A stretch of 64,000 nt of DNA from Candidatus Oxydemutator sp. (GTDB lineage Bacteria; Pseudomonadota; Gammaproteobacteria; Poriferisulfidales; Oxydemutatoraceae), in NCBI GenBank assembly GCA_965203445.1, contig OZ241883.1:1888001-1952000 (forward strand). The letters are read 5' to 3'. The translations under genes were made by a program, and so were the position numbers. This document shows, piece after piece, positions 4,410 through 33,185 of this stretch. The notes beneath the pieces were generated by a model. It was not told the DNA's origin. It did not search any database and saw only the letters and a list, made by a program, of their open reading frames with translations. Numbering within the stretch: position 1 is the first letter of the stretch; every line of letters begins with the position of its first letter.

Positions 4410-6509
<2,100 letters not shown>

Positions 6510-6521
6510 CCAGGAGCGACC

Positions 6522-7712
6522 ATGTCGAAAGAGAAATTTGAGAGGACGAAGCCGCACGTAAACGTAGGCACGATAGGCCACGTGGATCACGGCAAGACGA
6601 CGCTGACGGCGGCGCTGACGAAGGTGTTGTCGGAGAGTCAGGGCGGGGAGTATCGTTCGTATGATCAGATAGACAACGCGCCGGAGGAGCGCGAGCGAGG
6701 GATCACGATAGCGACGGCGCACGTGGAGTATGAGTCTGCGGGTCGTCATTACGCGCACGTGGACTGTCCGGGGCACGCGGACTACATCAAGAACATGATA
6801 ACGGGCGCGGCGCAGATGGACGGGGCGATATTGGTGGTGAGCGCGTCGGACGGACCGATGCCGCAGACGCGGGAGCACATATTGCTGGCGCGTCAGGTGG
6901 GGGTGCCGCACGTGGTGGTGTATTTGAACAAGGCGGACATGGTGGACGACAAGGAGTTGATGGAGTTGGTGGAGATGGAGGTGCGGGAGTTGCTGACGAG
7001 TTACGAGTTTCCGGGGGAGGAGGTACCGATAGTGTCGGGTTCGGCGCTGAAGGCGTTGGAGGGAGACGAGGGTGAGCACGGATCGGGTTCGATCATGAAG
7101 TTGGTGGGGGCGATGGATGAGTATATTCCGGAGCCGGAGCGGGCGGTGGACGGTGATTTTCTGATGCCGGTGGAGGACGTATTTTCGATTTCGGGCCGGG
7201 GCACGGTGGTGACGGGTCGTATAGAGCGTGGAGTGGTGAAGGTGGGAGACGAGGTGGGTATAGTGGGCGTGCGCGAGACGACGTCGACGACGTGCACGGG
7301 AGTGGAGATGTTCAGGAAGTTGTTGGACGAGGGACGCGCGGGGGACAACGTGGGGGTGTTGCTGCGCGGGACGAAGCGCGAGGAGGTGGAGCGGGGTCAG
7401 GTATTGTGCAAGCCGGGGTCGATCACGCCGCACGTGGAGTTTGAGTCGGAGGTGTACGTGTTGTCGAAGGAGGAGGGTGGTCGTCACACGCCGTTTTTCA
7501 AGGGTTATCGTCCGCAGTTTTATTTTCGGACGACGGACGTGACGGGCGAGGTGGAGTTGGAGTCGGGAGTGGAGATGGTGATGCCGGGGGACAACGTGAA
7601 GTTCAAGGTGAGGTTGATAGCGCCGATAGCGATGGACGAGGGACTGCGATTTGCGATCCGCGAGGGCGGGCGCACGGTCGGCGCCGGCGTCGTCACCAAG
7701 GTTATCCAATAG
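6522..7712 (+). CDS. tuf: Elongation factor Tu
   Basis: [26 protein letters not shown]; 396 aa. Confidence 0.99.
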
Positions 7713-7736
7713 GCGCACCGCGACGGGTATAGACGC

Positions 7737-8063
7737 ATGGCGCAGACCGACCAGACCAGCCAGAGTATCCGTATCCGCCTGAAGGCGTTCGACTATCGCC
7801 TGCTCGACAAGTCGGTGCGCGAGATTATCGAGACGGTCAAGCGCACCGGCGCCCGCATCAAGGGGCCGATTCCGCTACCGACGCGCATCGAGCGCTTTAC
7901 CGTGCTGATTTCTCCGCACGTGGACAAGGACGCGCGCGATCAGTACGAAATCCGCACCCACAAACGCATCATTGATATTCTCGACCCGACCGAAAAGACC
8001 GTGGACGCGCTGATGAAGCTCGATCTCGCGGCCGGCGTCAACGTGCAGATCAAACTGAGCTGA
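7737..8063 (+). CDS. rpsJ: 30S ribosomal protein S10
   Basis: [25 protein letters not shown]. Confidence 0.99.
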
Positions 8064-8069
8064 GGGGGG

Positions 8070-8705
8070 ATGATGGCGCTCGGATTGATAGGCGAGAAGA
8101 TCGGGATGACGCGCGTATTTTCGGAGGATGGGCGCTCGCTGGCGGTCACCGTCGTGCACGCGCCGGTCAACCGCGTAGCGCAGGTCAAGACCGCCGCCAA
8201 AGACGGTTATCCGGCGATGCAACTGGTCGCCGGCGGGCGCAAGCCGTCGCGGGTATCGAAACCGCTGGCCGGCCATTTCAAGAAGGCCGGCGTCGAGGCC
8301 GGCGGCGTGATCCGCGAGTTTCGCGTCGGCGAGGACGAATTGAGGCAGGTCGGCGAGACCGTCGGCGTCGACATATTCGAGCCGGGGAGCATGGTCGAAG
8401 TGACCGGCACCAGTCGCGGCAAGGGGTTCGCCGGCGCCATCAAACGCCACCATTTCCGCAGTCAGGACGCGAGCCACGGCAACTCGCTGTCGCATCGTGC
8501 GCTGGGTTCGGTCGGCCAGTGTCAACTGCCGGGGCGCGTGTTCAAGGGCAAGAAAATGCCTGGACGCATGGGCGGCGTGCGCGTTACCACGCGCAACCTC
8601 GAGGTCGTGCGCGTGGACCTGGAGAGAAATCTGCTGCTGATCAAAGGCGCGATTGCCGGCAGCCGCGGCGGCACCGTCATCGTGAGGCGACGGCATGGAA
8701 CTTGA
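8070..8705 (+). CDS. rplC: 50S ribosomal protein L3
   Basis: [28 protein letters not shown]. Confidence 0.99.
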
Positions 8706-9297
8706 ACTGGAGGGCGGAGGCACGATGCCGATATCCGAAGGCGTGTTCGACCGCCACTACAACGAGAGTCTTGTGCATCAGGCGCTGGTCGCGTTTCTCG
8801 CGGGCGCGCGCCGTGGCAGCAAGGCGCAGAAGAGCCGCGCCGACGCCGCCGGCGGCGGGCGCAAACCATGGCGCCAGAAAGGCACCGGCCACGCGCGCGT
8901 CGGCACCAACCGCAGCCCGCTGTGGCGTGGCGGCGGGCGCACCTTCGCGGCGCGTCCGCGCGACTTCGGCAGGAAGATCAACCGCAAGATGTACCGCGGC
9001 GCGCTGCGCTCGCTGCTGTCCGAGCTGTACCGGCGCGGCCATCTGCACGTGGTCGAGGAATGGAGCATTCCCGAACCCAGGACCAAACTGCTGGCGGCGA
9101 AGCTCAGGGCCTACGACTGGGATTCGGTGCTGATTGTGACCGCCGAATACGACGACAAGCTCATGCTCGCGGCCAACAACCTGCCGTACGTCGGCGTGTT
9201 GCCGGCGACGCGCCTCGATCCGGCCAACCTGCTGCGCTTCGGACACGTGCTGGTCACGCGCGCCGCGGTCCTCAAGATACAGGAGTGGCTCGCGTGA
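8695..9297 (+). CDS. rplD: 50S ribosomal protein L4
   Basis: [24 protein letters not shown]. Confidence 0.98.
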
Positions 9298-9599
9298 AAG
9301 TAACCTTGCCCGACGAGAGGCTGCACAAGGCGATCATCGCGCCGCACGTCTCCGAGAAAGCCACCAACGTCATGCGCGACAACCAGCACGTGTTCCGCGT
9401 GCTGCCCGACGCGACGCGCGCGCAAGTGCGCGCCGCGATCGAGAACGCCTTCGACGTCAAGGTCACAAAGGTCAACCTGGTGCGCGTCAGGGGCAAGCGC
9501 AAGGGTAGCGGGCGCAGCAGGGGGCGACGCGTGGACTGGAAGAAGGCCTACGTCACGCTGGCAGCCGGCAACAGCATCAACCTGACCGCGTCGGAATAA
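9294..9599 (+). CDS. rplW: 50S ribosomal protein L23
   Basis: [17 protein letters not shown]; GTG start overlaps rplD stop. Confidence 0.97.
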
Positions 9600-22310: not shown

Positions 22311-23144
22311 GAACCTATCTCAAAATCGAATATCTGCTGATTATCGTGTATGATCTATTGCATGGTACGATTGAGCGACGAGCAATGGGAACGCATACGC
22401 AAGCACTTCCCAGAAGAAAACATCCCGCCGGGTCGGGCCGGTCGCAAACCGGTGCCGACAAGAAAAGTTCTCGAAGGCGTCCTGTGGATCCTCAACACGG
22501 GTGCACAATGGAAGATGCTGCCGCAATGTTATCCGAATTACAAAACAGTTCATCGTCGTTTTCAACGATGGTGTATGAACAACACCTTGCGCGATCTGCT
22601 GGTGGACTTGGCTAACGATTTACGCAAGGAAGGGATCGTGGACGAGAGGGAGTGTTATATAGATGGGATGTTTGCCGCGGCCAAAGGGGGTGGCGCCGAG
22701 GTGGGTAGGACGAAGCGCGGAAAAGGCGTCAGAATCATGGCCATAGTGGATAAGCATGGTCTGCCGTTGTCGGTCAGTACGCACGCGGCGAACCATCACG
22801 AAGTGACCTTGGTGCAGTTGAGTTTTGACTTTTACATGATAGAGGCGAAGCCGAAGAACCTGATAGGGGATCGCGCCTATGATAGCGATGGTTTGGATGA
22901 GGAATTGCGCGCTTCGGGGATAGAGATGATAGCCCCGCACAAACGCAATCGTAAGAAACGCAAGACCCAGGATGGTCGCAGACTGCGCCGCTATGAAAGG
23001 CGCTGGATAGTGGAGAGATCTTTTGCATGGCTACAATGGCAACGACGAGTGTTAACACGGTGGGAGTATTACGCGCATAACTTTTTTGGTTTTGTGCAGC
23101 TGGCCGCCATGATGATATTGATTAGGCAATTTTGAGATAGGTTC
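22311..23144 (+). mobile_element. IS5-family insertion sequence, 834 bp, apparently intact
   Basis: Perfect 16-bp terminal inverted repeats GAACCTATCTCAAAAT (22311-22326) and ATTTTGAGATAGGTTC (23129-23144); TTATTT on both flanks; one transposase ORF. Confidence 0.93.
22362..23135 (+). CDS. IS5-family DDE transposase
   Basis: LSDEQW, WILNTGAQW, IDG, GDRAYD, RRWIVERSFAW. Confidence 0.95.
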   Translation: MVRLSDEQWERIRKHFPEENIPPGRAGRKPVPTRKVLEGVLWILNTGAQWKMLPQCYPNYKTVHRRFQRWCMNNTLRDLLVDLANDLRKEGIVDERECYIDGMFAAAKGGGAEVGRTKRGKGVRIMAIVDKHGLPLSVSTHAANHHEVTLVQLSFDFYMIEAKPKNLIGDRAYDSDGLDEELRASGIEMIAPHKRNRKKRKTQDGRRLRRYERRWIVERSFAWLQWQRRVLTRWEYYAHNFFGFVQLAAMMILIRQF

Positions 23145-23154
23145 TTATTTTTTC

Positions 23155-24000
23155 TTACACTCCCGCTGCTTTCAGGGTGTTTTCTATCAGGCAGGCTACG
23201 GTCATCGGGCCGGTGCCGCCGGGCATCGGGGTGATGGCGCCGGCCACCGTGCGCGCTTCGTCGAAGGCCACGTCGCCGACGATCTTGCCGTCTTTTTCGT
23301 TGACGCCTACGTCCACGACCGTGGCCCCCGGTTTGACGAAGCTTTTTTTGACCAGCTCGGGCATGCCGGCGGCGGCGACCAGGACGTCGGCATCGCGGCA
23401 CACCGCCTCGAGGTCCTGCGTCCTCGAATGGCATACGGTTACGGTCGCATCCACGCCGCGCAGCGCCAGCAGCAAGGCCTGCGGCAGGCCGACCAGGTGC
23501 GAGCGGCCGATGACGACCGCCTTTCGACCTTGCGTCGGGATCTCGTATTCTTCGATCAGGCGCATCACGCCAAGCGGCGTGCACGGCACCAGGTTCGGTT
23601 TGCCGCGCACCAGACGGCCGAGATTTTCGGCGGTCAGGCCGTCCACGTCTTTGGCCGCGGGGATCAGATCTATCACCGCGTCGGTGTCCACGTGGCCGGG
23701 CAGCGGCAGTTGCACGAGGATGCCGTGCACCGAATCATCCGCCCCCAGCTCGCGCACCGCCGCCTCAAGCCGCGCTTGTGCGACTTCTTCCGGCAACTCG
23801 ACCATGTGCGTCTTGAGGCCGCCGCGCGCAGCCATTTTCTGCTTGAGGTTGACGTAGTAGCGGCTGGGTGCGTGGCTGCCTACGAGCACCGTCGCCAGCG
23901 TGACTTCCGGGTTCCCGGCCGCCGCCAGTTTCTCGGCGACGCCTGCGACGATACGCTCGGCGGTGCGTTTGCCGTCGAGCAGCAAGGCTTGCTGCGGCAT
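23155..24000 (-). CDS. folD: Methylene-THF dehydrogenase / methenyl-THF cyclohydrolase
   Basis: LLDGK, GILVQLPLP, KDVDG, PCTP, TPMPGGTGPMT; ATG at 24000. Confidence 0.97.
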   Translation of the reverse strand: MPQQALLLDGKRTAERIVAGVAEKLAAAGNPEVTLATVLVGSHAPSRYYVNLKQKMAARGGLKTHMVELPEEVAQARLEAAVRELGADDSVHGILVQLPLPGHVDTDAVIDLIPAAKDVDGLTAENLGRLVRGKPNLVPCTPLGVMRLIEEYEIPTQGRKAVVIGRSHLVGLPQALLLALRGVDATVTVCHSRTQDLEAVCRDADVLVAAAGMPELVKKSFVKPGATVVDVGVNEKDGKIVGDVAFDEARTVAGAITPMPGGTGPMTVACLIENTLKAAGV

Positions 24001-24002
24001 CG

Positions 24003-24926
24003 TCAGGCGCGCGGCTGCCTGTCGGGGTGCAGGTAGATCAGGCTTTTGCCGAGGCGCCCGCCGTAATTGCCGGCGGAGATCATCAGCAATCCGTCGGTAT
24101 CCCTGGAGGCGGCGATCGCGGCCTGGGTCGCCTCGATGATGCAGTCCACGTCGCGCCCGTTCATGATGATTTCCATGACCGAGTGAACGCCTTCGGGCAG
24201 TCCGCATTCGACGCCCGGCTCGTCGCGCAGCAGCGGGCAGAATTTTTCGTAGGTGCTGGCGACGGTGAAGTCGTATTTGCTGCCGGCTTTCGAGCCGCTG
24301 CCGGCGACGCCGCCGGGGAAGGTCGAGATTACGCCGGGCACCGGCAGGATCGCCGCGACGCCTTTTTCCGCAGCCGCAAGCGCCGCGTCGACGTCGCGCC
24401 CGAAGAACCACAGGTTGCCGCCCATCAGGCCGTCGCGGTAGCCGAGCCTGCGGTCGAGTACGAATTCGCCGCCCAATATAGGGATCCACCACATTTTGCG
24501 GCCGTGGCGTTCGATGCGCTTCTGGTAGCCGTTGCCGAAGTAGGCGACCTTGCGTCCCATCTGGAAGTAGTCGTCGCCCTCGATCAGGTTGAAGCACGAG
24601 GCGGTCGGGCAAGTGAGCACGTTCTGGCTGATGCGCACGAGCGCCGCGCGTTCGAGTCTGTCGACGCGGTCTTTCCAGAACTTCGGCGCGTGCAGCTGGA
24701 CGACGGCGCCGGGGCGCCCGTCGGGCGTTTGAAAACTCTCGTCGCCGCCGCGTCCCACGTAGCGGTCCATGCCGGCCTCGCAGTCGCACAGGATCGAACT
24801 CGAGGCGTTGCCGGTGCAGGCTTCGACCGCGTAGTCGAGCCATTTCCGGTCGCGCGCGGTGATCAGGAACTCGACGTGGATGCTCTTGAACGCCTCGGCG
24901 TAGGTGTCGTCTATGATCGCGCCCAT
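24003..24926 (-). CDS. fhcD: Formylmethanofuran-tetrahydromethanopterin formyltransferase-like protein (Ftr/FhcD family)
   Basis: IDDTYAEAF, CDCEAG, TPDGRPG, VLTCPT, GGNL, FPGGVAGSGSK, ISAGNYGGRLG; 307 aa from ATG 24926. Confidence 0.9.
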   Translation of the reverse strand: MGAIIDDTYAEAFKSIHVEFLITARDRKWLDYAVEACTGNASSSILCDCEAGMDRYVGRGGDESFQTPDGRPGAVVQLHAPKFWKDRVDRLERAALVRISQNVLTCPTASCFNLIEGDDYFQMGRKVAYFGNGYQKRIERHGRKMWWIPILGGEFVLDRRLGYRDGLMGGNLWFFGRDVDAALAAAEKGVAAILPVPGVISTFPGGVAGSGSKAGSKYDFTVASTYEKFCPLLRDEPGVECGLPEGVHSVMEIIMNGRDVDCIIEATQAAIAASRDTDGLLMISAGNYGGRLGKSLIYLHPDRQPRA

Positions 24927-24928
24927 GG

Positions 24929-25567
24929 TCAGCCTCGGCCGCGGCCTTCGTACACGGCCTTCTCGGTGATGACTTTGTCCATGTAGACGTCGTGCGGCGC
25001 GACCAGCACTTGGTCGAACATCTGCGACTCGTAGGCGAGCGCGATCAGCGGGCAGTCGCGGCGGACTTTCTCGAGCAGGCGGTCGTAATACCCTTGGCCG
25101 TTGCCCATGCGCCCGCCGCCTCGGTCGAAGCCGACGCCCGGCACCATCACGACGTCGAGCGTCTGTGGCTCGATCTCCTTGGCCGGGTCGCCCCACATCT
25201 CGCGCGGCGGTTCGAGGATTTTCCATTTGCCGACCACCAGTTCATCGAAGCTCTCCAGGTGAAACAGGCCGAGTTTGTTTTCGCCTTTCTCGTCCACCGT
25301 GCAGTAGGGTACGACGATTTTCTTGCCGCCTTTCTCGATTTCCTTTTTCAGGTGCGGTTTGGTGCGGGTTTCGGAGCGGCAGTCTATATACCACATCGCG
25401 CTCCTGGCGCTCCGGTATTCGGGCAGCGCGATGAATCGTTCGCAGATCGTGGCGCTCACCTCGTCTTTGTCCTCCTGCGCCGCGCGCGCGTCGTAGGCTT
25501 GGCGGCGCATCTTGTTCTTGCGCTCCATGATTTGTTCGAGTTCCTGCGGGGTCGGCGTCATAAGCAT
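24929..25567 (-). CDS. 5-formyltetrahydrofolate cyclo-ligase
   Basis: ILEP, VPGVGFD, RMGNGQGYYDR, HDVYMD; AAGGAG RBS. Confidence 0.93.
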   Translation of the reverse strand: MLMTPTPQELEQIMERKNKMRRQAYDARAAQEDKDEVSATICERFIALPEYRSARSAMWYIDCRSETRTKPHLKKEIEKGGKKIVVPYCTVDEKGENKLGLFHLESFDELVVGKWKILEPPREMWGDPAKEIEPQTLDVVMVPGVGFDRGGGRMGNGQGYYDRLLEKVRRDCPLIALAYESQMFDQVLVAPHDVYMDKVITEKAVYEGRGRG

Positions 25568-25593
25568 GCTCCTTGTGTCGTTAGTTGCGCAAC

Positions 25594-25601
25594 ATTATAA
25601 T
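25594..25601. promoter_or_regulatory. Bidirectional -10 element
   Basis: Palindromic ATTATAAT gives TATAAT on both strands in the 41-nt gap between divergent genes. Confidence 0.45.
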
Positions 25602-25608
25602 CAATTTT

Positions 25609-26514
25609 ATGCCCGGTGCGCGTTTCATCACGTTCGGCGGCGGCAGAAGGTGGCATCGCGCCGCCGACAGGATCGCGCGACAAGCCGAGGCGTTTGATTT
25701 GTTCGATGAGGTGGCTGCCTACACCGCGCGAGACCTGAGACGTTTCACCGATTTCTGGAAACAACACGGCGCGTTCATCCGCGCCAACCGCCGAGGTTAC
25801 GGCTACTGGCTGTGGAAACCCTTTCTGATCCTCGAGAGTCTTAAGCGTATGGAGACCGGGGACATATTGTTCTACGCCGATGCCGGCTGTGAACTCAACG
25901 TGTACGGTCTGGAGAGGATGAAGGATTATCTCAGCTTGTGCTCGGAGGGGAGGATCTTGAATTTTGAACTGAGGAGTAGTATCTCAACGTGGACCAAAAT
26001 GGATACTATCGTGCGCGTTGATCCGCGGTGCCGTCACGCGCAAAAATCGCCGTACGCGGCCACCCTGTTATTCTTTGCAAAGACAAACGCCACTATGGAG
26101 TTGGTCGAGCAGTGGTACGGTTTGTGCACGGAGGACGATTATCGTTACCTGGATGATTCGTCTTCCCACCGGCCCAACCATCGCGACTTTCGCGAACATA
26201 GGCATGATCAGGCGATTTTGTCCCTGCTTGTGCGAAAGCACGGGTTTGGTTCCGCTGTGAGTGTGGCTGAGTGCTGGTTCGGGCCGTGCTCCGTCAGAGC
26301 GCCCCGAGAGGGAAGCCTGTACCCCGTGTGGTTCAGCAAGAACGCAAGCGGCGTCCCCTCTCTCGCATGTTTGACCTTGCACCGTGAGCGGAATCCGAAA
26401 AAGTTTCCATTGCCCGTTTGGGCCTGGTTGCGTTGCAGGCGGCGTTTTGTTGGTGTCAAGGACGCGATGCGCAGCGCCGTCGGAAGGATATTACGAAGGG
26501 TGAGGAGAGGATGA
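25609..26514 (+). CDS. Putative GT-A-like glycosyltransferase / hypothetical protein
   Basis: RGYGYWLWKP, YADAG, HRHDQAILS motifs; lower GC than core genes. Confidence 0.6.
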   Translation: MPGARFITFGGGRRWHRAADRIARQAEAFDLFDEVAAYTARDLRRFTDFWKQHGAFIRANRRGYGYWLWKPFLILESLKRMETGDILFYADAGCELNVYGLERMKDYLSLCSEGRILNFELRSSISTWTKMDTIVRVDPRCRHAQKSPYAATLLFFAKTNATMELVEQWYGLCTEDDYRYLDDSSSHRPNHRDFREHRHDQAILSLLVRKHGFGSAVSVAECWFGPCSVRAPREGSLYPVWFSKNASGVPSLACLTLHRERNPKKFPLPVWAWLRCRRRFVGVKDAMRSAVGRILRRVRRG

Positions 26515-26571
26515 AAAAGCGCGATGCCGTTCTAGTATTCAGTATGCGCGTTTCCGCCGTTTTGTCGCCGT

Positions 26572-27024
26572 TCAGTGGCACGCCTTGCCGTATTTCTTAA
26601 GCCGCCAGTAGTTGTAGGGCCACGGGGTCACAAAACCCGCGGCCAGCGCCGGTACGACCGCGGCCGGCGTCAGTCTGGCGCCCCCGGCGATCAGCCAGTC
26701 GGTCGCGTTCATCGCCGTCTCCATCGCCAGCATCGAAAGGAAGCTCATGCCGAGCGCGGTTTTCAACGCCGCGCGCGGCGCCAAGTGGCGGCGTATCAGG
26801 ATCGCGGTCTCAAGCAGCACGCTGGTGGCAAGGCCGTTGATCATCGCCAGCCCCATGATCGCCAGCCCCGGCCACGCGATCTCGTTCAACTGAAAGAACA
26901 GGATCGTGCCGAAGTCGCCGATGGTGCAGCCGATCAGGCACCACATCGTGTTGTAGGCGCTCGCGCCCCACGTGTGGCGACACGTCCAGAACGGGCTTGC
27001 GAACGAGTTTGCGGATGTCGCCAT
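26572..27024 (-). CDS. DUF4396-like membrane protein
   Basis: NTMWCLIGCTIGD, GMSFLSMLAME, GFVTPWPYNYWRL. Confidence 0.8.
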   Translation of the reverse strand: MATSANSFASPFWTCRHTWGASAYNTMWCLIGCTIGDFGTILFFQLNEIAWPGLAIMGLAMINGLATSVLLETAILIRRHLAPRAALKTALGMSFLSMLAMETAMNATDWLIAGGARLTPAAVVPALAAGFVTPWPYNYWRLKKYGKACH

Positions 27025-28697
27025 CAGTCGGTAACGGCGCCTTCGGAGGCCGGGCGGACGAGCCTTGCGTACTTGGCGAGCGCGCCGCGGGCGTAGCGCG
27101 GCTTCGGCGGTTTCCAGCGCGCCAGACGCCGCCGGATTTCCGCCGCCGGCAGTTTCAGGTCGAGCTCGCGCTTGACCGCGTCTATCGTGATCGGGTCGTC
27201 GTCGCGCACGATTGCGAGCGGGCCGCCGGTCGCCGCCTCCGGCGTGACGTGCCCGACGACGAAGCCGTGGCTGCCGCCGGAAAAGCGCCCGTCGGTGATC
27301 AGCGCGACGTCGCGCCCCAGGCCCTTGCCCATGATGGCCGAGGTCGGCGCCAGCATCTCGCGCATACCGGGGCCGCCCACCGGGCCTTCACAGCGGATTA
27401 CGACGACGTGGCCTTTTTTGATCGCGCCTTTGAGGATGCTTTTCATCGCCGCCTCCTCGGACGCGAAGACGCGCGCCTTGCCGGTAAAACGCAGTCCCTC
27501 CTTGCCGGTAATTTTGGCGACCGCCCCCTGCGGCGCCAGATTGCCGCGCAATATCACGAGATGGCCATCGGCCTTGATCGGGTCGTCAAACGACCGGATG
27601 ATGCGCTGCCTGGCGGGGTAGGGCGGCGTTTTCGCAAGGTCGCGCGCGAGCGTTTTGCCGGTCACGGTGAGGCAGTCGCCGTGCAGCAGCCCGCGGTCCA
27701 GCAACTGCTTCATCAGCGGGCGGATGCCGCCGATGCGCACCAGCTCGGACATCCAGTAGCGCCCGCTCGGGCGCAGATCGGCCAGCACCGGCACGCGCGC
27801 GCCGATGCGCGCAAAGTCGTCCAACGACAGCGCCACGCCGCATGCGTGCGCCATCGCCAGCAGGTGCAGCACCGCGTTGGTCGAGCCGCCGAGCGCGGTT
27901 ACGACCGTGATCGCGTTCTCAAACGCCTGCGCGGTCATGACGTCGCGTGGCAGTATCTGTTTCCTGACCAGGTTCACGACCATGCGTCCGGCCTCGGCGC
28001 AGTCGCGCGCCTTGTTGCGCGACACTGCGTTTTGGGCCGAACTGCCGGGCGCGCTCATGCCCATGGCCTCGATGGCCGACGCCATCGTGTTGGCGGTGTA
28101 CATGCCGCCGCACGAACCGGGCCCCGGAATCGCGCCGGCCTCGATGTCGTTCAATTCGCGCGCGCTGATCAGGCCTTTGCTGCGCGCGCCGACGGCCTCG
28201 AACACCGTGACCACGTCGGCTTTTTTGCCGGCGGCGCGTCCCGGCAGTATGGTGCCGCCGTAAATGAACACGCCCGGGCGATTCAGGCGCGCCAACGCGA
28301 TCATGCAGCCCGGCATGTTCTTGTCGCAGCCGCCGATCGCGACGACGCCGTCGAAGCCCTCGCAGGCGACGACCGCCTCTATCGAGTCGGCGATGATCTC
28401 GCGCGATACCAGCGAGTATTTCATGCCCTCGGTGCCCATCGAGATGCCGTCGGAGACGGTGATCGTATTGAACACGACGGCCTTGCCGCCGGCGCGGTCT
28501 ATCGCGCGCGCGCTCTTGTCGGCCAGGCCGTCTATGTGCACGTTGCACGGCGTGACCTCGCTCCAGGTCGAGGCGACGCCGATTTGCGGCTTCTTGAAGT
28601 CGGCGCCGGTGAAGCCGACGGCGCGCAGCATCGCGCGACTCGGCGCGCGCTCGAGGCCGTCGACCACGGCGGCGGAATATTTGCGGGCTTTGTTCAT
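27024..28697 (-). CDS. ilvD: Dihydroxy-acid dehydratase
   Basis: [31 protein letters not shown]. Confidence 0.97.
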
Positions 28698-30163: not shown

Positions 30164-30193
30164 TCAATCAAAGGCGAGTCAATCAAAGGCGAG
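30164..30193. repeat. Perfect 15-bp tandem duplication of the egtB 3' end
   Basis: TCAATCAAAGGCGAG at 30164-30178 and 30179-30193. Confidence 0.92.
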
Positions 30194-31318
30194 GCGTAGC
30201 CCGGAGAAGATGTGGCGCTTTTCGGGCGTGTGGAAGTTTCTGAAGCTCAGGCGCGTGCAGTCGCCCTCGCTGAAGGCGCTGGCGCCGCGCAGCACGTAGT
30301 GCGCGCCGTCGAACCACGGCGTCGAGTATTCGTCGTACGGAAAGGCGCGAAAGCCTTCGTAGGGGTGAAAGGCGTTCGCGCACCATTCCCAGGCTTGCGT
30401 GTTCTTATCGAGCAGTCCCTGCGCACCCGCGGTCTCCCATTCATATTCGCACGGCAGCCGCGCGCCCGCGTAGCGGCTGAAGGCGCGCGCCTCGAAATGG
30501 CTGAGGCCGCGCACTGGAGCCTCGGGGTCGAGCGCGCGCGCACCAAAGCAGGTAATCTCGAACCAGCCGCCGTCGCGCGCGCGCCGCCAACCGTCGGGCG
30601 CGCGGCATCCGAGCGCGCGCCGCCAGCGCAGTCCCGCGGCGTCCCAGTGCCGGTCCCGCCGGTAGCCGCCGTCTTCGATAAAGCCCAGATACTCGGCGTT
30701 GGCGACGGCGTCGCGCGCAATCGCAAAAGACTTCATCCTTTTCCCGTGGCGCGGCAGTTCGTTGTCGAACGACCAGTCGTCAACACCGCCGATTTCGTAT
30801 TCGCCCGCGGCCACGTGCACGGCTTCGCGCCGCACCGGAGCGGCCTGCGTGAGTCCGCGCGCGTGGTCGCGCTGCCTGCACAGCCTGAGTTGGCGCTGCG
30901 TCAGCACCATGCGCATCGTCTCGACGTGCTGGGCGTGGTGCTGCACCAGAAATTTCAGCAGGTAGTCGTCGGTGCCCGCCGGTTGCTTGTGCGGCGTTTG
31001 CAACAGGCGGACGTTGGCGCGCTGGCGCCGTCGCGCGTCGTCCACGAGTGCTATCTTTTCCGGCAGCCGCGCACCGCGCTCGGCCTTGATACTGTTTTCC
31101 GGGACGTAGAGCGCGTGCTCCCCGTCGCGCAACGTTTCCTTGTGCAGCCAGAAATCCTCGACAAAAATCGTATGGCCGACGTGCCAGCCGATGGGGCTTA
31201 AGTCCACGTGGTACTGCTCGCGGCATTCGGCGTCGCCGAGCGGTGCGATCAGCGCGAGGATGGTTTCCTGTAGTCGCCGCAGGCGGCGCACCAGGCGCAC
31301 TGAGGCCGGATCGTTCAT
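30179..31318 (-). CDS. egtB: Ergothioneine sulfoxide synthase (DinB + FGE-sulfatase domains)
   Basis: SPIGWHVGH, iron-binding QHHAQHVE, FDNELPRH, RLPCEYEWE, WEWC; next to egtC and egtD. Confidence 0.85.
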   Translation of the reverse strand: MNDPASVRLVRRLRRLQETILALIAPLGDAECREQYHVDLSPIGWHVGHTIFVEDFWLHKETLRDGEHALYVPENSIKAERGARLPEKIALVDDARRRQRANVRLLQTPHKQPAGTDDYLLKFLVQHHAQHVETMRMVLTQRQLRLCRQRDHARGLTQAAPVRREAVHVAAGEYEIGGVDDWSFDNELPRHGKRMKSFAIARDAVANAEYLGFIEDGGYRRDRHWDAAGLRWRRALGCRAPDGWRRARDGGWFEITCFGARALDPEAPVRGLSHFEARAFSRYAGARLPCEYEWETAGAQGLLDKNTQAWEWCANAFHPYEGFRAFPYDEYSTPWFDGAHYVLRGASAFSEGDCTRLSFRNFHTPEKRHIFSGLRLAFD

Positions 31319-31333
31319 AAGGCGTTCATAAGG
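31312..31333. repeat. Perfect 11-bp tandem duplication at the egtC stop / egtB start
   Basis: CGTTCATAAGG at 31312-31322 and 31323-31333. Confidence 0.9.
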
Positions 31334-32093
31334 GCGTCACTACGGGATCGGAGTCGCGCGTTACGACCAGCACCGACGCGGCGGGCACGGCGCGCCAGTC
31401 TTCCGCCGACGTCAGAGGTTCCGATGCGACCAGCGCGCGCCGGCCGTCGTACAGATGGTAGAGCGACGGGGCGTCATCGTGTAACGCGCAGCGCACGCAG
31501 TACAGCGCGGTGCCGTCGCTTATGATGAAGTTCAGCAGCGCGCGGTCGCCGCCGGCGTGCCGCTCGATCCAGGCGACGGTGCGTCGCAGAGAGTCGGCGA
31601 CGCCGTCGCCGGGGTGGTCGCGGCGCATCTGGCGCAACAGTGCGAACAGGTATTCCGAATCGGTCAGGCCGCGCACCGCCGCCTCCACGTCGGCGTCGAG
31701 CTTCCCGAGCAGCGACGCGCGCAAGCCGCGCTGGAAGTTTTCGACGAAGCCGTTGTGCAGAAACAGCAGCGACTCGTCGTGGAACGGTTGCGTGTTGTGC
31801 CGGTCGTTGGCGTAGCCCGGGGTCGCGCTGCGTACCATCGCAAGCCAGAGGTCGCGGCGCAACGTGCGCGCGAGGCTTTCGAGATTGGCGTCGGCCCAGA
31901 TCGGCGCCGGGCTGCGGTACGCGGCGGGACGGCCGTTCTCCAGATACCAGCCGAAACCGAAGCCGTCGGCGTTCAGTTTCGCGTAGGCAAGCTCGCGCGG
32001 TTGCCACGACTGGATGTAAAGGCTATGCTCAGGTTCGAGCAATAACTCCTTGAGTAAAAGAGGTTTTCCGAGGTAGGCAGCGAGGCGGCACAT
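31326..32093 (-). CDS. egtC: EgtC-like class II glutamine amidotransferase (Ntn hydrolase)
   Basis: N-terminal MCRLAAYLG, HSLYIQS, NADGFGFGWY, VRSAT, HNG, TDSE, ASEPL. Confidence 0.9.
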   Translation of the reverse strand: MCRLAAYLGKPLLLKELLLEPEHSLYIQSWQPRELAYAKLNADGFGFGWYLENGRPAAYRSPAPIWADANLESLARTLRRDLWLAMVRSATPGYANDRHNTQPFHDESLLFLHNGFVENFQRGLRASLLGKLDADVEAAVRGLTDSEYLFALLRQMRRDHPGDGVADSLRRTVAWIERHAGGDRALLNFIISDGTALYCVRCALHDDAPSLYHLYDGRRALVASEPLTSAEDWRAVPAASVLVVTRDSDPVVTPL

Positions 32094-32180
32094 GCAACCA
32101 TTATATAGCGGCCGCAAAACGACGTCGCCTGATGCGTGTTATCATAGCTTCGTCGAAGTGCCCGTCAGCGCTCCAAAAAG

Positions 32181-33185
32181 ATGAAGCAGCCAGCCGCCGA
32201 GAAGGAACGGCCTTTTTCGTGTACCGACGTCGAGCCGCGTCTTGCGGTGCGCACGCTGGCGGAAGACGTCCTGGAAGGGCTGTTCAGCACGCCGCGCACG
32301 CTGCCCCCGAAGTACTTCTATGACACCGAGGGTTCGCGCCTTTTCGACCGCATCTGCGACACCGAGGAATACTATCTGACGCGCACCGAGAGCGCCCTGC
32401 TGCGGCAGTGCGCCGACGAGATCGTGCGCCGCGTCCGCCCCGACCACATTATCGAGTTCGGCAGCGGCCTGTCGCGCAAAAGCCGCTTTCTGCTGGACGC
32501 CTGCGCGCGCCAGGGCCTGCGTTGCACCTACTGGCCGATGGACATCTGCCGCGACGTGGTCGAGGAGGCGGGGCGACGGCTGATGGACGAGTATCCGTGG
32601 CTGCGCGTGCGCGCCCTGATCGGGGACTACGGCGCCGGTCTCGGCAACGTCGCTCTGGCCGGCGGCAGACGCCTGGGCGTGTTTCTGGGCAGCACGATAG
32701 GCAATTTCGACGCCGCCGAGGCGGTTCGGTTCTTGACCGACGTGCGCTCGCTGCTGGGCGCCGGCGGCATGCTGCTGTTGGGCGCCGACCGCGTCAAGCG
32801 CACGGCCGTGCTGAACGCGGCCTACGACGACGCCGCCGGCCTGACCGCGCGCTTCAACCGCAACGTGCTGAACGTGTTGAACGGGGAGCTGGGCGCCGAT
32901 TTCGTGTCGGACAATTTCGAGCATCGCGCATTCTTCGACGAGCACCAGAGGCACGTCGAAATGCATCTGGTGGCGGGCACCTCCCAGCGGGTATATTTTG
33001 GATGCCTTGCGCGCTATCTTGAAATGGATGCCGGCGACTCGATCCGCACCGAGACCAGCCGCAAGTTCACCGACGACTGCCTGTCCACGCTGTTCCGGCA
33101 GAGCGGCTTTATCGTCGACAAGCACTACGTGTCGGACGACGATTACTTCTCGGTCGTGCTGGGGTGCGTCGGCGATGTTTCGTGA
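32181..33185 (+). CDS. egtD: L-histidine N-alpha-trimethyltransferase
   Basis: LPPKYFYD, EYYLTRTE, EFGSG, FLGSTIGNF, AYDD, EMHL, IRTETSRKF. Confidence 0.93.
   Translation: MKQPAAEKERPFSCTDVEPRLAVRTLAEDVLEGLFSTPRTLPPKYFYDTEGSRLFDRICDTEEYYLTRTESALLRQCADEIVRRVRPDHIIEFGSGLSRKSRFLLDACARQGLRCTYWPMDICRDVVEEAGRRLMDEYPWLRVRALIGDYGAGLGNVALAGGRRLGVFLGSTIGNFDAAEAVRFLTDVRSLLGAGGMLLLGADRVKRTAVLNAAYDDAAGLTARFNRNVLNVLNGELGADFVSDNFEHRAFFDEHQRHVEMHLVAGTSQRVYFGCLARYLEMDAGDSIRTETSRKFTDDCLSTLFRQSGFIVDKHYVSDDDYFSVVLGCVGDVS

Follow-up and report, generated by a model that had tools for sequence, protein, structure and literature searches.

An Ftr/FhcD paralogue linked to 5-formyltetrahydrofolate cyclo-ligase as a candidate entry point for one-carbon units into folate in serine-cycle Gammaproteobacteria

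Serine-cycle methylotrophs are thought, from the Methylorubrum literature, to need a formate-tetrahydrofolate (THF) ligase to bring carbon from the tetrahydromethanopterin (H4MPT) pathway into folate. In organisms such as Methylorubrum extorquens, this ligase, FtfL, converts formate to 10-formyl-THF, which Fch and then MtdA carry on to methylene-THF, and to our knowledge FtfL is the only known enzymatic link from the H4MPT pathway to methylene-THF in such organisms. Ftr enzymes formylate N5 of their own pterin, and N5-formyl-THF is the substrate of 5-formyltetrahydrofolate cyclo-ligase (MTHFS), the one enzyme we know of that returns 5-formyl-THF to the active folate pool. Here we describe an operon in a 64-kb stretch of the genome of a Candidatus Oxydemutator species in which a paralogue of Ftr/FhcD, which we call Ftr2, lies between the genes for MTHFS and FolD. 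We give an even chance to the reading that the three genes act as a folate-entry module in a methylotroph that uses the serine cycle and has no formate-THF ligase.

The window analysed is this whole 64-kb stretch (G000:C1:1888001-1952000) of the source genome, G000, a single contig of 2,378,814 bp with 63.6% G+C that is rated 100% complete. The operon consists of three genes, given here and below in window positions:

25567..24929, minus strand: MTHFS (5-formyltetrahydrofolate cyclo-ligase), 212 aa, PF01812 and TIGR02727
24926..24003, minus strand: Ftr2 (Ftr/FhcD paralogue), 307 aa, PF01913 and PF02741
24000..23155, minus strand: FolD (bifunctional methylene-THF dehydrogenase/methenyl-THF cyclohydrolase), 281 aa, PF00763 and PF02882

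The first-pass annotation had described three co-oriented genes with 2-nt gaps, and the coordinates of the open reading frames (ORFs) bear this out, both intergenic gaps being exactly 2 nt from stop codon to next ATG. An alternative MTHFS ATG at 25561, 7 nt past an AAGGAG motif, gives the 210-aa form found in the protein database and is likely the true start. MTHFS scored 125.5 bits on PF01812 and, on TIGR02727, the equivalog model for bacterial MTHFS, 125.8 bits against a cut-off of 84.9 (profile positions 1-182 of 182); its C-terminal glycine-rich catalytic motif is conserved and aligns with structures 1YDM, 1SOU and 2JCB. Ftr2 has the two-lobe architecture of its family (PF01913, 139.5 bits, residues 3-150; PF02741, 157.3 bits, residues 153-300). 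It lies above the cut-off of the subfamily model NF002554 (309.6 versus 297 bits) and narrowly misses that of the FhcD equivalog TIGR03119 (290.7 versus 292.6 bits), on which the FhcD of the canonical cluster in G000 scores 407 bits. FolD carries its catalytic and NAD(P)-binding domains (PF00763, 106.2 bits; PF02882, 208.3 bits), and the NCBIfam FolD models match it over its full length, yet under their strict cut-offs. In searches of G000, the operon MTHFS was the sole match to PF01812 and the operon FolD the only FolD match over the cut-off. A promoter and terminator scan of 22900-26700 returned counts near the shuffle expectation, and a complex prediction for two Ftr2 copies plus MTHFS, with both alignments supplied, scored 0.24 against a mark of 0.32.

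The pairing of MTHFS with Ftr2 extends far beyond the source genome. Neighbours were counted by tblastn in 80 species-genome loci with an Ftr2 74-89% identical to that of the window, and 78 of these loci have MTHFS as the immediate, co-oriented upstream neighbour of Ftr2; of the two exceptions, one locus is cut at Ftr2 and the other has MTHFS on the opposite strand, 1.2 kb away. Of 72 pairs, 64 have the MTHFS stop and the Ftr2 start −4 to +8 nt from each other; MTHFS in these loci is 65-87% identical, and FolD is directly downstream of Ftr2 in 62 of the 80 loci. A second set of 80 metagenome loci was found with P0121, the one full-length representative in a library clustered at 50% identity that groups with Ftr2 (64% identical; the next full-length library matches are at most 44% identical to Ftr2). 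In this more divergent set, whose Ftr2 is 55-75% identical to that of the window, MTHFS is directly upstream in 59 loci, 9 have too little upstream sequence and 12, mostly of the P0121 subclade, are without it; apart from MTHFS, no conserved neighbour was found in the metagenome set. Loci L100-L109 and L127, members of that subclade with an Ftr2 62-67% identical to that of the window, have no MTHFS in the 4 kb upstream. The MTHFS-Ftr2 pair also occurs in four genomes labelled as Planctomycetes (taxon labels of the loci are the depositors' own). Conservation of the linkage, the lack of which the first-pass annotation had named as a refutation of its idea, is strong, and a two-gene unit that persists amid changing surroundings is the usual sign of proteins that share one metabolite.

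The linked MTHFS proteins themselves are closely related, with identities of 64-87% among Ftr2 carriers of two phyla. Identity to the MTHFS of the window is 64-72% in other Ftr2 carriers versus 26-36% in 38 of the 40 Ftr2-less genomes with a match, the remaining two reaching 55-56%. Five carriers outside the order could be assessed for further MTHFS genes, and four of them have the linked copy alone. Outside the pair, the nearest MTHFS (55% identical) belongs to G390, a 5-Mb gammaproteobacterial genome without Ftr2, where it stands back to back with two genes of the Mpt_N family and is followed by a decarboxylase gene that depends on pyridoxal phosphate (PLP). Positions are those of locus L098 (G390:C1:2046000-2060000):

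5451-6608, minus strand: PLP-dependent decarboxylase
6605-7204, minus strand: MTHFS
7653-8561, plus strand: Mpt_N-family (MtdA/MtdB-type) dehydrogenase
8586-9482, plus strand: Mpt_N-family (MtdA/MtdB-type) dehydrogenase

An MTHFS subgroup of the G390 type may thus be tied to one-carbon (C1) metabolism even where Ftr2 is missing.

We surveyed Ftr-family proteins in all 53 genomes of the organism's order, an even sample of 400 genomes of the class and four others. In trees of 54 and 104 rows, all Ftr2-type sequences fell on one side of a branch with a Shimodaira-Hasegawa-like approximate likelihood ratio (SH-aLRT) of 100; the second tree set 71 Ftr2-type rows on a long stem against 33 canonical rows, and because the latter were chosen from the first tree, its clean split is partly by construction. 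The cyclo-ligase-linked copies thus form a clade separate from the FhcD proteins linked to fhcABC, as the tree suggested by the first-pass annotation was meant to reveal. An Ftr-family match was present in 51 of the 53 order genomes and in all 41 of good quality, and nearly every genome of the order has two copies, one 70-89% and the other about 40% identical to Ftr2, a pattern that extends to order genomes as small as 0.9-1.2 Mb. Both Ftr copies, Mch and the malate thiokinase subunit MtkA are retained in 41 of 41 good-quality order genomes, including those of about 1 Mb. Genomes G019-G036, from families f2 and f3 of the same order and 0.7-1.2 Mb in size, keep Ftr2, canonical FhcD, Mch and malate thiokinase, often in one contiguous cluster; they look like streamlined or symbiotic methylotrophs built around this C1 module.

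In the class sample, ten genomes from six families carry an Ftr2 of at least 70% identity, all ten together with a canonical copy, and 44 further genomes have canonical-type copies only. The four genomes labelled Planctomycetota or Planctomycetaceae (5.8-7.4 Mb) hold one Ftr2 and one canonical copy each. We considered whether their contigs could be mis-binned gammaproteobacterial DNA, an explanation disfavoured by the size of these genomes, a 125-kb contig and the differing neighbours, and these carriers are probably real. Among the 60 carriers counted, only two drafts of about 1 Mb, G026 and G030, yielded no canonical copy.

Ftr2 combines retained and altered positions. Its Glu252 aligns with the catalytic Glu245 of Methanopyrus kandleri Ftr (1FTR), is the same residue in all 35 close relatives and is conserved in at least 90% of the 71 Ftr2 rows and at least 75% of the 33 canonical rows; in all, 53 positions are common to Ftr2 and canonical Ftr. 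This glutamate is described as stabilizing the oxyanion, as Glu245 in M. kandleri Ftr and Glu252 in M. extorquens FhcD (PMC6926001). At position 19, 70 of 71 Ftr2 rows have Glu and 31 of 33 canonical rows have Arg; six Arg residues (14, 25, 82, 125, 160 and 291) are conserved in the Ftr2 clade only, and a 5-residue insert occupies positions 61-65 across the 35 close relatives. Speculatively, the clade-specific arginines could bind the polyglutamate tail of methylofuran or of THF. Taken together, a single long-stem clade of high conservation that has kept the catalytic Glu and switched position 19 reads, at the level of sequence, as a probable signature of neofunctionalization.

The C1 inventory of the source genome shows what Ftr2 adds to. 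A canonical fhcB-fhcA-fhcD-fhcC cluster lies at 1.157-1.162 Mb of G000 (FhcA, 718 bits on TIGR03121), and mch, fae and an Mpt_N (mtdB-like) gene at 2.013-2.019 Mb; mfnB, the furan-forming methanofuran gene, is also present. Ftr2, at 1.912 Mb, is encoded apart from fhcA/B/C and is 42% identical to the genome's own FhcD. None of fhcA/B/C, mch, mtd or fae is in the window, in agreement with the first-pass annotation, which had seen none nearby, and the genome holds the fhcBADC, mch, mtdB-like and methanofuran genes for which it had advised a search. The standard pathway is complete outside the window. Because the canonical FhcD sits in fhcBADC elsewhere, Ftr2 is not needed for the standard reaction, and the case in which Ftr2 would be the only fhcD does not apply. 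G000 also encodes a pyrroloquinoline quinone (PQQ) dehydrogenase of the methanol/ethanol family (771 bits versus a curated cut-off of 480). A second gene of the PQQ-dehydrogenase family, 20 kb from the first (G000 1,537,625-1,539,154, minus strand), scores 456 bits, below that cut-off.

In most relatives the module stands at the head of a serine-cycle-type cluster, a placement that the first-pass annotation had not foreseen. Within the 5-kb flank that bounds the downstream counts, the genes co-directional after the module in the 80 species loci include a class-V (glyoxylate) aminotransferase in 57, an HpcH-family malyl-CoA-lyase-like gene in 51, and the beta and alpha subunits of a malate/succinate-CoA ligase (malate thiokinase) in 46 and 31, respectively; in 13 loci no FolD intervenes between Ftr2 and the aminotransferase after it. 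In G000 these four genes are found together with one for a hydroxypyruvate/glyoxylate reductase at 2,210,287-2,215,642. There, the beta subunit MtkA scores 635.2 bits on NF010647 versus a malate-CoA ligase cut-off of 604, MtkB matches succinate/malate-CoA ligase alpha models, the lyase is of the HpcH family but under the specific cut-offs, and the reductase is of the glyoxylate/hydroxypyruvate reductase type. The aminotransferase is nearest to BhcA (580.7 bits, under the cut-off of 650). A beta-hydroxyaspartate cycle, which the likeness to BhcA brought to mind, was rejected, as malate thiokinase and malyl-CoA-lyase-like genes follow; the substrates of the aminotransferase and the lyase we infer from this context. 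All 41 good order genomes have an MtkA orthologue, which, by a reading of coordinates, is no more than 10 kb from Ftr2 in about 28 of them. Since the serine cycle needs a supply of methylene-THF, the module stands where that supply is needed, and the Methylorubrum serine-cycle cluster presumably carries its folate-interconversion genes mtdA and fch in the corresponding position.

A search of G000 found no formate-THF ligase (FTHFS), and the enzyme is likewise scarce among other carriers. Genomes with FTHFS numbered as follows:

All genomes of the organism's order: 3 of 53, over the cut-off
Ftr2 carriers outside the order: 2 of 6
Planctomycete-labelled carriers: 0 of 4
Sampled Gammaproteobacteria with canonical Ftr only: 36 of 44

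Overall, FTHFS is found in 5 of 60 Ftr2 carriers (50 carriers being counted in the order), a large contrast with the canonical-only genomes, and in the class, six of eight carrier families are entirely without it. These counts include genomes flagged as unpublished, namely G346 (Ftr2 and FTHFS) and G091, G192 and G358 (Ftr only, with FTHFS); leaving these four out gives FTHFS in 1 of 5 carriers outside the order and in 33 of 41 Ftr-only genomes. The absence of ftfL, which the first-pass annotation had proposed to look for, thus holds for G000 and for most Ftr2 carriers.

On this evidence we propose the following route. Methanol would be oxidized to formaldehyde and on to the formyl level by the H4MPT pathway (Fae, MtdB, Mch, FhcBADC), the genes of which are present. 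Ftr2, as a neofunctionalized Ftr, would then move the formyl group from formyl-methanofuran (or formyl-methylofuran) to N5 of THF, or might draw it from 5-formyl-H4MPT through a bound furan cofactor; to do so it may dock on Fhc, carry a furan cofactor of its own or use 5-formyl-H4MPT. MTHFS, by the known activity of its family, would spend ATP to convert 5-formyl-THF, otherwise a dead end, to 5,10-methenyl-THF, and FolD, likewise by its family's known activity, would yield methylene-THF, which serine hydroxymethyltransferase would pass to the serine cycle; alternatively, FolD could hydrolyse methenyl-THF to 10-formyl-THF for purines and formylmethionine. The module would cost one ATP per C1 unit, as FtfL does, but would bypass free formate. 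That 5-formyl-THF is a dead end without MTHFS would explain the near-constant translational coupling of MTHFS and Ftr2. More broadly, the assumption that Ftr2 uses THF would account for that coupling, the frequent FolD, the position at the serine-cycle cluster and the scarcity of FTHFS, and also for a second Ftr kept in 1-Mb genomes and for a long-stem clade of high conservation. A bridge of this kind was the idea of the first-pass annotation, and all genomic checks that it named favour it; the formylation of THF at N5 by Ftr2 is the part that we infer.

Several observations weigh against this proposal. Since MTHFS and FolD are single-copy genes required for housekeeping anyway, only their position beside Ftr2 is informative. 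The FTHFS anticorrelation is not strict: both enzymes occur in five carriers, and of the 44 genomes with canonical Ftr only, 8 are without FTHFS too. Nor do the 60 carriers amount to 60 independent cases, because a single order supplies 50 of them and the pattern is clustered by phylogeny. Neither FolD nor serine-cycle genes were found within 4 kb in the distant metagenome loci, and the P0121 subclade lacks an adjacent MTHFS in 7 of 10 assessable rows. The MTHFS of G390, beside genes of the methylene-H4MPT dehydrogenase family, also fits a role on the H4MPT side. In Methylorubrum, 97% of the methylofuran is given as bound to Fhc as a prosthetic group (PMC6926001), and a free Ftr2 may not see a formyl-furan pool. 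With methylofuran held so tightly, the donor may be Fhc-bound formyl-methylofuran or 5-formyl-H4MPT and not a free pool.

These points leave room for other explanations, in which Ftr2 does not feed folate. It could be an ordinary formyl-methanofuran:H4MPT formyltransferase working outside Fhc, for example by equilibrating formyl-H4MPT with a soluble furan pool, with the linkage reflecting co-regulation of C1 genes and MTHFS merely repairing 5-formyl-THF, a side product of serine hydroxymethyltransferase that would matter in a serine-cycle organism. The passing score of Ftr2 on NF002554, the shortfall of less than 2 bits on TIGR03119, and the catalytic Glu and 53 positions common with canonical Ftr all suit this explanation, as do the single-copy, housekeeping nature of MTHFS and FolD and the MTHFS of G390 (55%), which shows that MTHFS can join a C1 cluster without Ftr2. 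Yet co-regulation leaves unexplained why an overlapping two-gene unit recurs in unrelated neighbourhoods of two phyla, why genomes of about 1 Mb would keep a second canonical enzyme, and why the clade has a long stem, an Arg-to-Glu switch and new Arg residues; it also leaves the serine cycle of carriers without FTHFS with no known enzymatic source of methylene-THF. We consider this explanation, taken with its repair role for MTHFS, unlikely.

A second alternative would move the cyclo-ligase itself to the H4MPT side. MTHFS homologues occur in methanogens that lack folate, and a role with 5-formyl-H4MPT has been suggested for them in Kaster et al. 2011 (PMC3087415); by analogy, the linked protein might be a 5-formyl-H4MPT cyclo-ligase that turns the Ftr2 product, 5-formyl-H4MPT, into methenyl-H4MPT with ATP, as an irreversible reductive branch. 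Besides that suggestion, the two Mpt_N-family dehydrogenase genes adjoining the nearest MTHFS outside the pair point this way, as does the closer match of Ftr2 to archaeal Ftr structures (222 and 218 bits) than to Methylorubrum FhcD (169 bits). We find it improbable all the same: Mch, which performs the same step reversibly and without ATP, is present in 41 of 41 good order genomes, so that such a cyclo-ligase would duplicate it futilely within an oxidative pathway; the linked protein scores above the cut-off of the equivalog model for bacterial MTHFS and is the sole MTHFS of a plainly folate-using genome; FolD, which acts on methenyl-THF, is downstream in 62 of 80 loci; and no enzyme is known that would pass carbon from methylene-H4MPT to the serine cycle. 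Ftr2 might instead run in reverse, disposing of 5-formyl-THF without ATP by moving its formyl group to methanofuran or methylofuran, from which FhcA would release formate by hydrolysis, so that Ftr2 and MTHFS would be parallel means of removing one inhibitor of serine hydroxymethyltransferase. However, 5-formyl-THF is the most stable formyl-folate, which makes transfer away from it the unfavourable direction, two redundant enzymes for a side product would hardly be kept translationally coupled across phyla and in 1-Mb genomes, and the scarcity of FTHFS in carriers would go unexplained. The linkage evidence serves this explanation as well as it does the folate-entry proposal, serine hydroxymethyltransferase carries a high flux in serine-cycle organisms, and the Fhc reaction is described as reversible (PMC6926001); on balance we hold disposal to be very improbable, and the small share of probability left over goes to explanations beyond these.

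The surroundings of the operon in the source genome differ from those in its relatives. Its neighbours in the window (the end of a putative ribosomal-protein operon, a transposase, DUF4396, ilvD and ergothioneine-type genes) are unrelated to it, the main ones being:

22350..23135, plus strand: IS4/IS5-family transposase, DUF4096 and DDE_Tnp_1, abutting the folD 3′ end
25585-26514, plus strand: 309-aa ORF, no Pfam match, third-position G+C 0.68
27024..28697, minus strand: ilvD (dihydroxy-acid dehydratase), ILVD_EDD_N and ILV_EDD_C, the syntenic upstream neighbour
30179-33185: ergothioneine-type gene set, three genes, by domain resemblance

Where G000 has the insertion sequence (IS) element, 57 of 80 related loci have the glyoxylate aminotransferase instead, and the element likely marks the breakpoint that separated the operon from the serine-cycle cluster in G000. 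It has eight further copies or fragments in the genome, 85-98% identical, with positions at 1,982,758, 1,820,196, 2,109,074, 1,756,678, 1,928,642, 2,333,095-2,333,540 and 1,440,727. On the other side of the operon, the ilvD family is upstream of and co-directional with the module in 54 of 80 related loci, but functionally ilvD is not part of it. The 309-aa ORF, encoded on the opposite strand, occupies the space between DUF4396/ilvD and the start of MTHFS; relatives show no such gene there, and their ilvD and MTHFS are adjacent and co-directional. The ergothioneine-like set comprises an EgtB-like gene (FGE-sulfatase and DinB_2), an EgtC-like class-II glutamine amidotransferase and an EgtD-like histidine-specific methyltransferase (Methyltransf_33). 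The putative ribosomal-protein operon was read from the lengths and order of its ORFs, with rpoA alone scanned. Just upstream of the serine-cycle cluster, G000 2,205,197-2,210,076 (L097 2198-7077) holds genes for a DNA methylase, for an HATPase_c_3 protein and for a 546-aa protein that carries a sigma-70 region 4 domain. Third-position G+C is low (0.61-0.64) in the last two, and this stretch looks like an inserted island of foreign-looking genes preceding the aminotransferase.

Were the folate-entry proposal to hold, its reach would be considerable. The MTHFS-Ftr2 pair ranges over marine and sponge-associated Gammaproteobacteria, Planctomycete-labelled genomes and many metagenome lineages, and we put forward tentatively, at a little under an even chance, that it is a widespread two-enzyme module, a third and undescribed C1 entry into folate that replaces FTHFS and feeds the serine cycle. 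In a whole order of Gammaproteobacteria from the sea and from sponges, the H4MPT pathway and serine-cycle genes are kept while the ligase is almost always lacking, and such a module would close this gap when the metabolism of abundant, uncultured marine methylotrophs is reconstructed. It would also be the first main-pathway role for MTHFS, assimilatory instead of repair, an example of an Ftr that switched pterin, and a formate-independent C1 entry for engineering.

How new the system would be follows from a comparison with what has been described. We found no description of an Ftr/FhcD paralogue linked to MTHFS, nor of an FtfL-independent transfer of formyl from the methanofuran/H4MPT system to THF, in a literature search that left most subscription journals outside. 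The protein families are known; the novelty would lie in the acceptor of Ftr2 and in the route. Compared with the housekeeping MTHFS proteins (YgfA/YqgN; 1YDM, 1SOU, 2JCB), the operon MTHFS is of the same family, passes TIGR02727 and keeps the C-terminal catalytic motif, but its type forms a tight subgroup (64-87% identical) with a stop codon that overlaps or nearly touches the Ftr2 start. With FhcD/Ftr (1FTR, 1M5H and 6S6Y chain D), Ftr2 shares the two-domain architecture, a full-length alignment (E-values 1e-49 to 8e-65), the catalytic Glu and 53 family positions. It differs in forming a separate long-stem clade at most 44% identical to any canonical member, in being coupled to MTHFS and not placed beside fhcA/B/C, and in having Glu19 in place of a near-invariant Arg, six gained Arg residues and the 5-residue insert. 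The closest functional counterpart is the FtfL route, absent as FTHFS from G000 and from 55 of 60 carriers examined. The enzymes of the module have no homology to FtfL, and entry would be at N5 and not N10, with a cyclo-ligase in place of the cyclohydrolase and free formate bypassed, yet the proposed role is the same: to bring formyl-level C1 units from the H4MPT pathway into folate for one ATP, from a locus that, like the Methylorubrum cluster with its mtdA and fch, places the folate-interconverting FolD with the serine-cycle genes.

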